A stretch of 64,000 nt of DNA from NCBI GenBank assembly GCA_047285535.1, contig JBJBDC010000001.1, forward strand, positions 1,504,136 through 1,568,135, in the 5' to 3' direction. Position numbers and translations under genes: made by a program. The first letter of the stretch is position 1, and each line of letters starts with the position of its first letter. This document shows positions 10,230 to 14,538 of the stretch, one piece after another. This stretch comes from Synechococcus sp. (GTDB taxonomy: Bacteria; Cyanobacteriota; Cyanobacteriia; PCC-6307; Cyanobiaceae). The notes beneath the pieces were generated by a model. That model was not told where the DNA came from. It did not search any database and saw only the letters and a list, made by a program, of their open reading frames with translations.

Positions 10230-10375
10230 TCATCATCTGGTTCTTGCTTGACGAAAAGAAGCTTCAGAACGCAGCAAACGGCTCAAAGCGAGCACAAACA
10301 TCAGCCTCAAACCAACAACATCCAAAGCCCCACCACTATCTAACAGAATCAAGATAGAGCCAAAAGACAACAATC

Positions 10376-11875
10376 ATGCCTAGATACTTGTTTCGCGAAG
10401 GAGTAAAGATCAACCCAGAAAATAAAGACATAATCATCACAACTCCTTACGCCACACGATCAAGCCCAAACCAGCAAACGCTCCGAATCAAAGATCCTGA
10501 AGCGCCTTTAAAAAAGCTTCTCAAAGACCTTCTTCAAACCGGAGTCGAAAGCAATCAGCATTTAATAGCATGCGAGAGTATAGAGACTACAGCAATACAT
10601 TCAGCCCATGGATTCCAACTTAAAACGCTTTTCAAAAAAGGATTGCTGATTTACGAAATCGATGGATGCAATGGCACTGCCATACGCCTACTACCAATAA
10701 AACCTGGACCCAAACAACACGCCCTCCCAAAAGAAGGAAAGACATTTAAGCTCTCTAATTTTGCCAGCATTCAACCCTTCTCTGAAGGCCTCGACATCAC
10801 AACACCCTCATCACCTACAACATTACGACTACAAGACCATCGGCTCTACCAGATCATCCCAAAACTCGTAGAACCCTGCACGACGGATAGTATTCGTGAG
10901 CTCTTACCCGAGGATCTGCGATTACAAACTCTCGACATTATCTCGACCTTCCTCACATCGGAAACAATCGGAATCTGCAACACGCAGCACATTGCAACGA
11001 TCGATGCAGAAGCAATCGCTGCAGGCTGGAGCAAAGAAGATCTCACGTTCCACTGCCATACCCGTCGCCACAGCGTTGATCTCCACCAAGAAGAATCTTT
11101 AGCGAAAGAATTCTGCACCAAGACACCACAAGCAAGACATCAAAGAGTCATCCTCAATACAGTAAAACTAAAACAACCATTACCGCATCAGCACAACTCT
11201 AATTTCTTTCAAGTCATTGAGAAACGAAAGACCATTCGAGCCTATAGCAATCAGCCCATCAATTCTGAAGCGTTAGGAAATCTTCTCTGGTATTCAATAC
11301 GCACTCGAGAAGAAATCTGCTGTGATCCAGGATTACCTCGCTCCTACGAAGGTTTACTTAGACCAGTCGCAAGCGCAGGGGGCCTCCATTCCATCGAGCT
11401 TTATTTATGCATTAAACAGTGCATCGGCATTCCTCCAGGCTTTTATCATTACGACTCCTTTGAGCATGCACTGGGGAAATTAAGTGACCTGAATCAGGCA
11501 TGTGAAAACATGCTGACGCTTGCAGTCAATACAACATGCCGAGCACCACAGGCCCCTTCCATATCACCTGGCGAAGCCCAGCAGCCTGATATTTTAATCG
11601 TGATGGCCGCTCGCTATCAAAGAAATGCAAGCCTTCACTCTGGCACCGGGCTTGCCTACACTCTGATTCTAAAAGATGCCGGGTCAATCTATCAGCAACT
11701 CTATCTTGTTGCCACAGCCCTTGGACTCGCGCCGTGTGGATTAAGCTTTGGCAGCAGTGAATTATTCGAACAGGCTTCTGGCATCTCTAGCAAGACTGAA
11801 TGCTCCGTAGGCGAATTCATGATTGGCAATCCCAAGCAAGGGTCGATCATTCATCAAAGCCAAAGCTTGCATTAA
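10376..11875 (+). CDS. SagB/ThcOx-family FMN-dependent peptide (azoline) dehydrogenase, cyanobactin-oxidase-like
   Basis: C-terminal nitroreductase fold with RKTIRAY, LGNLLW, RPVASAGGLHSIELY, GFYHYD and LKDAG..YQQLYLVATALGLAPC. Long N-terminal region with W...DL.FH..TR as in ThcOx/PatG oxidases. Confidence 0.85.
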   Translation: MPRYLFREGVKINPENKDIIITTPYATRSSPNQQTLRIKDPEAPLKKLLKDLLQTGVESNQHLIACESIETTAIHSAHGFQLKTLFKKGLLIYEIDGCNGTAIRLLPIKPGPKQHALPKEGKTFKLSNFASIQPFSEGLDITTPSSPTTLRLQDHRLYQIIPKLVEPCTTDSIRELLPEDLRLQTLDIISTFLTSETIGICNTQHIATIDAEAIAAGWSKEDLTFHCHTRRHSVDLHQEESLAKEFCTKTPQARHQRVILNTVKLKQPLPHQHNSNFFQVIEKRKTIRAYSNQPINSEALGNLLWYSIRTREEICCDPGLPRSYEGLLRPVASAGGLHSIELYLCIKQCIGIPPGFYHYDSFEHALGKLSDLNQACENMLTLAVNTTCRAPQAPSISPGEAQQPDILIVMAARYQRNASLHSGTGLAYTLILKDAGSIYQQLYLVATALGLAPCGLSFGSSELFEQASGISSKTECSVGEFMIGNPKQGSIIHQSQSLH

Positions 11876-12152
11876 AAGCAGTTTAAGTCTAAAGATAAAA
11901 AAGATCGCTTCTTTCTATATTAAATACTATCGGAGCGAACAAACAGAGGACGCAAGGAACAATTGATAGCTTGATCAAGCCTTGTCTTGCAATCAACTCA
12001 GCTTACACGCGACTTACAATAACAATCACTCCTCGAAACATACTATTCACCCCAAGCTGACAAAAAAACCTCCCAAATGATCAGATGATTCACGCTCAAG
12101 TATAGATTTACGGGTCAAACGAAATAGGAAGACTACAATTTAAAAGCCAGCA

Positions 12153-12389
12153 ATGAAATCCATGGAAGCTGTTGCGAATGCACTTAAACTAAAGACAGCA
12201 GGCTTTATGGCGTCATACTTTTGCTCTCGAAGCATCCTGAATGCATTATTCATATCGCTCATCACTTTTGTCATCATTCCATCAATCACAGCTGGAAGCG
12301 AGCCAGAGAGTTGCCTGCTGGCCGTTATTCCATCACTATTAGTAATAATAGTTTTTTGGCTTAGGTTTACACACAAATACGCAAATTGA
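12153..12389 (+). CDS. small hypothetical membrane protein (2 TM)
   Basis: 78-aa ORF with two hydrophobic stretches; shares MEA and IVFWLRF with the next ORF. Start may be ATG 12162. Confidence 0.55.
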   Translation: MKSMEAVANALKLKTAGFMASYFCSRSILNALFISLITFVIIPSITAGSEPESCLLAVIPSLLVIIVFWLRFTHKYAN

Positions 12390-12392
12390 ATC

Positions 12393-12614
12393 ATGGAAGC
12401 ATCAAGGAGCTCGCCTTACGGACTAGAACACTTCAGGAGCCTTGGATTCTTATTCTTTTTATGCGGAGCTTACTATCACTGTATTGATTTTCTAGGCACT
12501 GAAAAAACCACTCTATGGGGTATGGGACTAACTTTCTCAGGATTAATGCTAGCGACTATAGTATTTTGGCTTCGATTTGCCATACAAAGAAGAATCTGGA
12601 AATATTTATTTTAG
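12393..12614 (+). CDS. small hypothetical membrane protein (2 TM), paralog of the upstream ORF
   Basis: 73-aa ORF starting 3 nt after the previous stop; IVFWLRF motif. Confidence 0.6.
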   Translation: MEASRSSPYGLEHFRSLGFLFFLCGAYYHCIDFLGTEKTTLWGMGLTFSGLMLATIVFWLRFAIQRRIWKYLF

Positions 12615-12692
12615 ATTAAAGACTAAGTTCCAACCAAGCAAAAGCCAGGCACTCCCTGAAGCTGAGCTTTTCTCGGTCAGAACAGATGTCAT

Positions 12693-12956
12693 TCAATTGG
12701 CTGAACCATTTTTGGCTGAAGAAGGTTGAACAGGCACAGTCGATCCGTCTTTTCGCTTCAAAACAGTGGGATTAGCGGCAGCCGGCTTAGTAGCAGCCGG
12801 CTTAGAACTGGCAGACTTGGAAGCAGTCGAAGCCTTGCCAGGCTTGATTACATAAATCTTAGAGCCATATGTTTTTTCGATTAAGAAGAAAATCAACACC
12901 ACTACTGGGACCGAAGTTAAGCCACCAACAATGACCTCGAATTCAGACAACGCCAT
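12693..12956 (-). CDS. small single-TM protein with Lys/Ala/Ser/Pro-rich tail (N-terminus PsaM-like)
   Basis: 87-aa ORF with one hydrophobic helix (about aa 8-26) and a low-complexity basic tail; divergent from isiA. Confidence 0.7.
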   Translation of the reverse strand: MALSEFEVIVGGLTSVPVVVLIFFLIEKTYGSKIYVIKPGKASTASKSASSKPAATKPAAANPTVLKRKDGSTVPVQPSSAKNGSAN

Positions 12957-13234
12957 TATAAAAGAATAATTTCAAACAATACCCGAGAGAATTCTCAGCA
13001 TCAAATCATTTGGCACCTATCGAAGCAGCTTTTGAAAAGGCAATAAGTACGTTTTGCGACGCCATCCCGCATCAGAAAATATAGACGGAGGAAAATATTG
13101 ACCACAGAAATGAAGCAATTGAGCGAAGAAAAGTATCATGTTTACAGCAAAATTGTTCAATCAAAATATGTTAAATCCGCGAAGATTTGCCGGGCATGAC
13201 TAACTAGTCTGAGACTGCCCAAGTTCATCAACCA

Positions 13235-14269
13235 ATGCAATCTTATGGGAAACCATCAGTCAATTATGACTGGTGGGCAGGCAATTCAGGAGTAGCCAAA
13301 CGATCAGGTTCTTTCATTGCTGCTCATACAGCACATGCAGGCCTAATTATGTTTTGGGCAGGAGCATTTACGCTCTTTGAGCTAGCTCGCTATGACGCGT
13401 TGCTGCCAATGGGGGAACAAGGATTAATCCTTCTGCCTCATCTGGCGTCGTTGGGCTTTGGCCTGGGTACAGACGCAACCATAGTGAACACGGAACCTTA
13501 TATCACGATCGCTGCATTTCATTTGGTCTCCTCCGCTGTATTGGGGGCTGCTGGTATTTGGCATGTCCTTAGAGCGCCTAAGGATCTATCAAAAGCGGAA
13601 GGAAGGGCCGAGAAATTTCATTTTAATTGGGATGACCCCAAGAAACTCACCTTTATTCTTGGCCACCATCTCATCTTTCTTGGGCTAGGAGCCATTGCTT
13701 TTGTGGAATGGGCACAACATCACGGAATCTATGACACTGCCATTGGCGCAGTTCGCAAAGTTGAACCCAACATTGATCTGGGCATGGTATGGAGCTATCA
13801 GACCAATTTTCTTTCCATTAGCAGCTTAGAAGATGTAATGGGAGGACATGCTGTATTAGCTTTCATACTGACAATTGGTGGAGTATGGCACATTATTACA
13901 AGCCCATTTGGACCCTTCAAAAAAATACTCATCTACTCTGGAGAAGCAATCCTTTCCTATTCTCTTGCAGGAATTGCACTCATGGGGTTTGTCACAAGCA
14001 TCTGGTGTGCACAAAACACAACGATTTATCCGGTTGAGTTCTACGGCGAAGCTCTAAAACTAAATTTTGCATTCTCACCCTATTTTAGTGACACAGTATC
14101 CGTCTTAAACGATGGACATACGGCACGAGCTTGGCTTGCCAATACGCACTTTTACTTGGCCTTTTTCTTCCTGCAAGGCCACTTCTGGCACGCATTGAGG
14201 AGTATGGGATTTGATTTCAGGAGCGTCTCTAAAGCAATCGATTCAATGGATACAATGCAGGTAAATTAA
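13235..14269 (+). CDS. isiA: IsiA/Pcb chlorophyll-binding antenna protein (CP43 family)
   Basis: WWAGN, AAH.AHAGL..FWAGAFTLFE, ILGHHLIFLG, LEDVMGGH and RAWLAN.HF..FFFLQGH.WHALR. At 344 aa it lacks the large lumenal loop of CP43. Confidence 0.93.
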   Translation: MQSYGKPSVNYDWWAGNSGVAKRSGSFIAAHTAHAGLIMFWAGAFTLFELARYDALLPMGEQGLILLPHLASLGFGLGTDATIVNTEPYITIAAFHLVSSAVLGAAGIWHVLRAPKDLSKAEGRAEKFHFNWDDPKKLTFILGHHLIFLGLGAIAFVEWAQHHGIYDTAIGAVRKVEPNIDLGMVWSYQTNFLSISSLEDVMGGHAVLAFILTIGGVWHIITSPFGPFKKILIYSGEAILSYSLAGIALMGFVTSIWCAQNTTIYPVEFYGEALKLNFAFSPYFSDTVSVLNDGHTARAWLANTHFYLAFFFLQGHFWHALRSMGFDFRSVSKAIDSMDTMQVN

Positions 14270-14292
14270 CGACTCATCATTTGAATGGGACT

Positions 14293-14332
14293 AAGTGGCC
14301 TCTTTGATTTTTCATAGGGGCCACTTCTTTTT
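14293..14332 (+). terminator. intrinsic terminator after isiA
   Basis: AAGTGGCCTCT...AGGGGCCACTT stem followed by CTTTTT. Confidence 0.7.
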
Positions 14333-14538
14333 GGACGCCTTTACAAGCCACTTCACTGACAACCATCCAATCATTCAAGCAAACGGGGATATCTGATTCT
14401 CATCAAAAACATTGGCAAACGTGCAATACCAATTACTAAATAGCCCTTTATTCGCAAAATCTAGATTTAAAAATCAAGGAAGTGGACGATGAAGGTTACG
14501 ACACAGATCACAACCCAAGTAAGCACGAATCCAGATCT

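Follow-up and report, generated by a model that had tools for sequence, protein, structure and literature searches.

IsiA forms rings around photosystem I (PSI), and the PSI-IsiA complex is well studied in freshwater models; in ocean cyanobacteria, IsiA and flavodoxin serve as standard markers of iron stress. PsaM, a PSI subunit of roughly 31 aa, consists of a single helix. A membrane anchor on the acceptor side of photosynthesis is described for Prochlorococcus, where FNR carries a predicted N-terminal transmembrane helix that is conserved in 10 strains, and where FNR was located in the thylakoid membranes of strain MIT9313 by activity, immunoblot and mass spectrometry (PMC6312871, in the sections cited here and below). 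The same source describes a soluble phycobilisome-docking domain of FNR, likewise an N-terminal add-on, which in phycobilisome-bearing cyanobacteria binds phycobilisomes and so fixes a cytoplasmic acceptor-side component to light harvesting (PMC6312871). Here we describe a stand-alone relative of the Prochlorococcus FNR anchor in Synechococcus sp. It is encoded by a gene for 87 aa, called SMALL below, which is divergent from an isiA gene in a stretch of 64,000 nt (contig JBJBDC010000001.1, positions 1,504,136 to 1,568,135; the window).

SMALL occupies positions 12693-12956 on the minus strand, stop codon included. Its open reading frame (ORF) begins with ATG and encodes 87 aa; the frame, the N-terminus and the sequence KPAATKPAAA within the tail agree exactly with a preliminary description of this DNA, which also placed the gene divergently from isiA across a 278-bp spacer, found here at 12957-13234. 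SMALL is a real gene, because the ratio of nonsynonymous to synonymous differences (pN/pS) over codons 1-41 is 0.156 (pS 0.50, pN 0.079; means over all pairs of 8 loci of type A, the subtype of the window's copy) and because a full scan of 1.84 billion proteins with an N-terminal profile returns 56 representative relatives at E≤0.001, 49 of them at E≤1e-10. A word-indexed search gave 38 clusters at E≤0.01 among 47 candidates. The start codon and frame are kept in dozens of genomes from two genera, and 24 columns are invariant among 21 aligned relatives, all but one of them within the first 47 residues. Relatives occur in records of Synechococcus sp., plus one metagenome-assembled genome (MAG) of Cyanobium sp., and are annotated in the public records only as "hypothetical protein"; strains recorded with the family include MIT S9503, MIT S9507, MIT S9451, A15-60 and A18-25c. 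The protein matches no Pfam-A family at E≤1, and NCBIfam returns only noise (MamP, 16 bits against a cut-off of 300). Nor does any Pfam-A match place it among the known small single-helix subunits of photosystem II, PSI or cytochrome b6f; PsbK, Psb30/Ycf12, PsaI, PsaJ and PetG are families that we take to lie inside that library. In the literature on isiA and iron in marine Synechococcus, on Prochlorococcus FNR/petH and on Pcb supercomplexes, no paper came to light in which the stand-alone family, or a connection between it and isiA, is described.

The best reading of the product is a small single-pass membrane protein with a disordered basic tail. Its conserved N-terminal helix module (codons 1-31; 12864-12956, minus strand), delimited by an alignment-based AlphaFold2 model, hydropathy, invariant columns and hhalign, is laid out as a short acidic N-terminus, GG and S-x-P motifs and then E/Y-K...G. 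The model predicts helices at residues 4-13 and 16-30, with a break at 14-15 just past Gly-Gly 11-12, and no secondary structure past residue 30; hydropathy averaged over 19 residues peaks at 2.31. The predicted local distance difference test score (pLDDT) averages 54.6; for residues 31-87 the block means lie at 47-54, and segments 39-44, 46-56 and 70-80 stay below 50. Ten columns are invariant across the Synechococcus subtypes (M1, L3, F6, E7, G11, G12, S15, P17, K28 and G31), and three of these, G11, G12 and P17 (G-G...P), are invariant in 34 sequences that include the Prochlorococcus forms. The predicted tail (codons 32-87; 12696-12863, minus strand) is rich in Lys, Ala, Ser and Pro, with a net charge of +9 and an isoelectric point (pI) of 10.6. 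Among relatives, whose whole length ranges from 53 to 307 aa and whose tails differ in repeat pattern, the sequence and length of the tail are not conserved, but the sign of its charge and its composition are: 8 type-A tails carry net charges of +9 to +14, and four tails measured for type C range from +3 to +22. A few N-terminal residues would lie in the lumen and the rest of the protein in the cytoplasm, since FNR must face the cytoplasm and since the charges, acidic at the N-terminus and basic past the helix, follow the positive-inside rule.

The helix module aligns with the anchor of Prochlorococcus-type FNR, a module that corresponds to no database family and is defined here by alignment. 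The profile of the Synechococcus proteins gives weak matches of 20-27 bits in genomes of 1.4-2.0 Mb, always at the extreme N-terminus of frames of either 366-409 aa or about 100 aa. The long frames are FNRs according to Pfam (NAD_binding_1, 85-88 bits; FAD_binding_6, 23-24 bits), in which the helix is followed by an Ala/Pro/Lys linker and then by the catalytic domains. When a profile of 19 Synechococcus sequences was compared by hhalign with 28 such N-termini (13 from FNR, 15 from stand-alone proteins), the result was a probability of 97.8% with an E-value of 9.6e-13, and the alignment ran from Met to Met, columns 1-38 to columns 1-38. The FNR-anchor set gave 1.3% against PsaM in the same test. 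Named examples are the 378-aa FNR of Prochlorococcus sp. AG-402-K14 and the 108-aa stand-alone protein of AG-436-C05.

Like Prochlorococcus FNR (PetH), SMALL has from its initiator Met a homologous helix with the G-G...P core, followed by a low-complexity stretch of Ala/Pro/Lys type. Unlike it, SMALL has no catalytic FAD- and NAD-binding domains; because the ORF ends after 87 aa without any Pfam domain, SMALL is a stand-alone relative of the FNR anchor and not an FNR. The two differ as well in their genomic standing, petH being a core gene whereas SMALL in Synechococcus is accessory and tied to isiA or to flavodoxin. The FNR of the window's own genome lacks such a helix, and the module profiles match only the 87-aa ORF in that genome (G000). 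The extension of this FNR is presumably of the CpcD type; Pfam does not call a CpcD domain in it at E≤0.001. The parallel between SMALL and the phycobilisome-docking domain of FNR is functional only, and no sequence relation is claimed between that soluble domain and the predicted transmembrane helix.

The stand-alone proteins of Prochlorococcus, about 100 aa long, have the N-terminal module in common with SMALL and, like it, consist of a single helix followed by a charged tail of low complexity; unlike SMALL, they have Lys/Glu-rich tails that end in poly-Lys. They are its nearest clusters in the ESM Atlas (score 0.80, a lead only), where they bear the automatic name "possible Integrin alpha cytoplasmic region", and we found no paper in the literature that names them. 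Neither these proteins nor the type-C SMALL protein match an NCBIfam family at E≤0.01. No pcb gene lies within 3 kb of the module at six stand-alone loci (L077-L082) or at a seventh locus (L083, G103:C1), where a 272-aa ORF runs from the module through a long charged region to a LysM domain at the C-terminus (44.6 bits). Such a domain is unexpected at a C-terminus predicted to be cytoplasmic. Of 100 genomes of the small-genome genera, 99 have the module, as do about half of those of two Synechococcus genera.

The neighbor of SMALL was correctly identified in the preliminary description as an isiA/pcb antenna gene. This CP43-like gene (13235-14269, plus strand, 344 aa) scores 509.3 bits with TIGR03041 (cut-off 335) and 187.9 bits with PF00421, and its 344 aa compare with a 488-aa open frame for the psbC-like gene of the genome. 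It is the sole IsiA/Pcb-type gene of the 3.03-Mb genome, in which the other matches are the psbC- and psbB-like genes. Four SMALL subtypes, A to D, are found in the window's genus. Subtype A, that of the window, is divergent from isiA and has a convergent 73-aa ORF (o73) on its other side in all 10 loci. Subtypes B and D lie on the same strand as isiA, about 230 bp and about 750 bp upstream of it, respectively. Subtype C is located 0.8-2.4 Mb from isiA or on another contig, and its proteins, 53-307 aa long, have tails made of 8-residue Lys/Ala/Pro/Asp repeats. In all 8 loci first examined, isiA lay within 1 kb. Adjacency holds, in three arrangements, for 11 of the 20 window-genus genomes that have both genes, the two lying apart in the other 9. 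Identity of IsiA to the window's copy follows the SMALL subtype (A, 94-96%; B, 83%; D, 81%; C, 81-82%), so the pairing is old and not a recent accident.

Presence of SMALL coincides with that of isiA across genomes. Among 33 high-quality genomes of the window's genus, 18 have both genes, 15 have neither and none has only one. When all 46 genomes of the genus are counted, 20 have both, 1 has SMALL only, 2 have isiA only and 23 have neither, and the exceptions are incomplete genomes (the SMALL-only genome at 80%, the isiA-only genomes at 70% and 73%). The corresponding figures in the second genus are 24 with both, 5 with SMALL only, 1 with isiA only and 21 with neither among 51 genomes, or 16, 1, 0 and 10 among the 27 of high quality. 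The count was extended to 301 high-quality genomes of the order by setting a combined module profile against TIGR03041 matches over the cut-off: 135 have both, 1 has the module only, 14 have the antenna only and 151 have neither, so that 135 of 136 module-bearing genomes also hold an IsiA/Pcb gene. Flavodoxin over the cut-off is distributed slightly more widely than isiA, in 24 of the 46 window-genus genomes (20 of the 33 of high quality), and two flavodoxin-bearing genomes have neither isiA nor SMALL. The earlier proposal of a new small subunit coupled to this IsiA is supported at the genomic level, by adjacency and by genome-wide co-occurrence.

In the window's genus, gain, loss and relocation affect o73, SMALL and isiA together, as a unit. 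Loci without the unit keep the order ald - SagB-like - ychJ - DUF3326 with nothing between, as in G016 and at the syntenic site of G009, and the variable unit therefore comprises 12393-14269 only. In G034, which has lost all three genes, a 34-residue remnant of isiA (L166:6204-6305, 67.6% identity) persists between the SagB-like gene and ychJ, and in G009 o73 - SMALL - isiA stand at another, low-GC place. In a tree built from the psbC DNA of 32 high-quality genomes, no fewer than 5 changes are needed to account for the joint presence and absence of SMALL and isiA, and there are differences between sister genomes.

Subtype C, which lies apart from isiA, is linked to flavodoxin instead. At all 9 loci with enough sequence (L013, L018-L024 and L061; e.g. 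L021:804-4199), a row of genes on one strand reads DUF1997 - SMALL - orf107 - orf138 - second flavodoxin, in which orf107 encodes 107 aa and orf138 encodes 138 aa. The second flavodoxin paralog scores 137-142 bits with TIGR01752, slightly short of the cut-off of 146.75, and the row looks like an unrecognised flavodoxin operon. In the type-C genomes, flavodoxin, a thioredoxin-reductase-like gene and an alpha/beta hydrolase form a classical cluster with isiA. These kinds of gene are the ones named for the iron cluster "syn8", which holds 17 uncharacterized families according to the section of that report cited here (PMC11970481). Some 110 nt upstream of isiA are nearly invariant in 7 type-C genomes (L054-L060), far above the surrounding spacer, which suggests that a structured leader at the 5′ end, or else a dense regulatory site, is present there.

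In the second genus, SMALL copies are found in yet other arrangements, at 0.3-2.8 kb from isiA. Five genomes have a copy 1.4 kb from isiA that contains one or two in-frame stop codons (G110:C1:818700, G136:C1:1459160, G144:C5:280126, G130:C15:274703 and G352:C62:4002), and all of them but G110 have an intact copy elsewhere, which suggests that the isiA-adjacent copy is undergoing turnover or replacement.

These patterns appear to be best explained if SMALL belongs to an accessory iron-stress gene set of marine Synechococcus. Within that set we tentatively propose, with confidence that falls somewhat short of even, that the protein is a cytoplasm-facing thylakoid tether of the IsiA/flavodoxin complement, possibly docking on IsiA. 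SMALL would then be expressed under iron stress and be located in the thylakoid, with its tail in the cytoplasm. The conserved helix would pack on a CP43-like antenna (IsiA here, Pcb in Prochlorococcus) or on the PSI-IsiA supercomplex, and the polycationic tail could act as an electrostatic tether, or landing strip, on the cytoplasmic surface for acidic acceptor-side partners such as flavodoxin; the two flavodoxins measured have net charges of -19 and -20 and pI values of 4.05-4.29. Strict conservation of the helix across three types of cargo argues for a specific partner, and the phyletic pattern points to the CP43-like antenna as a candidate for that partner.

A narrower version of the proposal, which we consider unlikely as it stands, would make the helix a dedicated dock for CP43-like antennas, with FNR held on Pcb in Prochlorococcus and the stand-alone form giving PSI-IsiA a polycationic, flavodoxin-holding arm in Synechococcus. 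Such a role would explain why presence of the module tracks isiA/pcb so closely throughout the order. If true, the helix would be a previously unseen subunit of PSI-IsiA and Pcb supercomplexes, and the fixing of FNR to Pcb in Prochlorococcus, which has lost phycobilisomes, would be the membrane counterpart of FNR docking on phycobilisomes. Independently of this version, the phyletic pattern offers the Pcb/IsiA antenna as a directly testable alternative to the published cytochrome b6f as partner of the Prochlorococcus FNR anchor. More generally, the SMALL family is a concrete candidate for a missing iron-stress component in the marine lineages that dominate iron-poor waters, and annotators can now name a family that has so far gone by "hypothetical protein".

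Several observations weigh against the tether proposal. Kinship and physical linkage both inflate the co-occurrence, joint inheritance being trivial for neighboring genes. The unlinked subtype C forms a single clade on the psbC tree and so represents one event, and the small-genome genera, all of which have both features, possibly owe them to one ancestral event as well. G195, a complete genome of the second genus, has the protein and no isiA. Conversely, 14 of 149 antenna-bearing genomes, nearly all of other genera, are without the module, so that IsiA does not need it in general. No promoter motif common to the subtypes was found on inspection by eye. Among solved structures, the module profile matches no chain at E≤10. 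In metatranscriptome contigs from 4 runs of 4 studies, which derive from related strains at 88% likeness, relatives of isiA are covered, and a single 61-nt contig (12675-12732) touches SMALL; cover this sparse is uninformative. For the anchored FNR, the authors of the Prochlorococcus study prefer cytochrome b6f over Pcb as the partner (PMC6312871). The LysM fusion is more easily reconciled with a generic anchor than with one specific to antennas. Caution is warranted by the cytochrome b6f suggestion and by the LysM fusion, as it is by G195 and the 14 antenna-only genomes.

One alternative is a generic membrane anchor with hitchhiking: the module would be no more than a signal-anchor for any cargo, the function of the small protein would be unrelated to IsiA, and it would travel with isiA or flavodoxin only through shared flexible islands. 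Three different C-terminal parts follow the module (FNR, LysM and low-complexity tails), as would be expected of such an anchor. The presence of the protein in G195, the want of a promoter motif common to the subtypes and the fact that adjacency accounts for most joint gains and losses fit it as well. An anchor selected for hydrophobicity only should drift, yet ten columns are invariant across the Synechococcus subtypes and G-G...P is invariant in 34 sequences. Three arrangements preserve the linkage to isiA, subtype C, which is unlinked, is found only in isiA genomes and beside a flavodoxin paralog, and all but one of the module-bearing genomes have the antenna gene. On balance, we regard a generic anchor as somewhat improbable.

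The helix could instead dock on a universal complex, cytochrome b6f or PSI, in which case the stand-alone protein would adjust cyclic or acceptor-side electron flow in iron stress without contacting IsiA. FNR was found in native-gel bands together with cytochrome b6f subunits, and an association was proposed on that basis (PMC6312871); the neighbors flavodoxin and isiA all concern the PSI acceptor side. According to the tables of the same report, PcbB was in the same bands as FNR and the cytochrome b6f subunits, so the partners were not separated (PMC6312871). Docking on a universal complex also leaves unexplained why the module is absent from all 25 high-quality isiA-less genomes examined in the two Synechococcus genera, and we consider it unlikely.

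A third alternative gives the module no specific partner: the tails would collectively coat the thylakoid with charged polymer on its cytoplasmic side, as a surface brush or spacer that determines how far apart the membranes lie or keeps phycobilisomes out when they give way to IsiA in iron stress. The hypervariability of the tail, with protein lengths of 53 to 307 aa within one subtype and repeats of an 8-residue Lys/Ala/Pro/Asp unit, agrees with this, as does the conservation of charge sign and composition in a tail whose sequence is not conserved. Since strict conservation of the helix is left unexplained, and since a brush would need abundance, this alternative seems to us decidedly improbable.

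The preliminary description had taken SMALL for a possible diverged, tail-extended paralog of PsaM, which would replace or supplement PsaM in PSI, on the strength of an ungapped N-terminal resemblance. That resemblance is at chance level for two hydrophobic helices, and beyond it the two have in common only that they are small with one transmembrane helix near the N-terminus. By hhalign, 37 distinct N-termini of the SMALL family against 23 distinct PsaM sequences (trimmed to about 29-35 aa around the model match) give 1.85% in local and 0.33% in global mode, so the paralogy claim finds no support, and cross-scores of the two hidden Markov models are at most 2.6 bits. Applied to the whole genome at E≤10, PF07465 (gathering cut-off 21.1 bits) misses SMALL and finds only the canonical psaM (G000:C1:1183953-1184039, 54.7 bits; 1 of 34 candidates scored), which sits 330 kb from SMALL; BLASTP of SMALL against this PsaM gives no alignment at E≤100. 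Among 31 related genomes, 28 have PsaM hits (26 of the 26 of high quality), and none of the 30 hits falls at a SMALL locus. Size separates them too, PsaM having about 30-35 residues and no long tail and SMALL having 87 aa, a long basic tail and relatives of 53-307 aa. The SMALL helix aligns instead to the FNR anchor, at 97.8%. Homology to PsaM is ruled out by the Pfam, genome, 31-genome, hhalign and BLASTP comparisons together, and we judge a PsaM paralog at this locus to be extremely improbable. Two genomes do hold a second, divergent psaM-like gene beside the canonical one (G008:C1:379298-379384, L052, 39.9 bits; G017:C1:2538058-2538144, L053, 38.4 bits), so that genuine PsaM paralogs, judged by these scores, do exist in the window's genus, at loci other than SMALL.

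That SMALL is a spurious ORF in a low-GC spacer, as its small size, its lack of a family annotation and the want of visible RNA cover might suggest, can practically be dismissed given a pN/pS of 0.156 at a pS of 0.50, a start and frame kept in dozens of genomes of two genera, and 56 representative clusters.

The divergent spacer (12957-13234) contains conserved blocks in an alignment of 9 type-A loci, the strongest at 13153-13175. The window has a single occurrence of this block, and 25 loci of the other subtypes have none at up to 5 mismatches. The regions upstream of type-C SMALL and of type-C isiA have conserved blocks of their own, none of which matched between the two sets, and no clear Fur-box-like palindrome was seen in them by eye. 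Downstream, 34 nt past the SMALL stop codon, is a terminator-like hairpin followed by a T-run (12645-12659, minus strand), which is weak evidence alone, the consensus scan having found 2 sites against 1.0 expected.

The third member of the unit, o73 (12393-12614, plus strand), encodes 73 aa with two hydrophobic stretches and converges on SMALL. It is present beside SMALL in all 10 subtype-A loci (L001-L006, L062 and L113-L115), with 56-72% identity; an antisense ORF that overlaps it (12140-12394) is less conserved, at 43-53%. At another locus (L123), o73 lies between a SMALL gene and a flavodoxin gene. One 181-nt metatranscriptome contig from the related strains covers the 3′ part of o73. No Pfam or NCBIfam family matches o73, orf107 or orf138 at E≤0.01, and o73 may be a second unknown membrane component of the SMALL/isiA unit.

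The unit lies, together with a SagB-like gene, in a low-GC stretch (10240-14500) of 41-46% GC, compared with 56-60% outside. The SagB-like gene (10376-11875, plus strand, 499 aa) encodes a SagB-type peptide dehydrogenase (TIGR03605, 125.1 bits; cut-off 78.4) with a weak ThcOx-like match at the N-terminus (21.6 bits, below the cut-off). It was considered as a member of the unit and rejected, because genomes without the unit retain it at this locus (67-69% identity). It is thus a resident in its own right, perhaps a maturation gene for a ribosomally synthesized and post-translationally modified peptide, for which no search for a precursor peptide or cyclodehydratase was made. Finally, SMALL and an isiA 81% identical to the window's copy are found on a contig (L128, PBXW01000080.1) that was binned into a Crocinitomicaceae MAG; this is most likely a cyanobacterial contig mis-binned into a MAG of the Bacteroidota.

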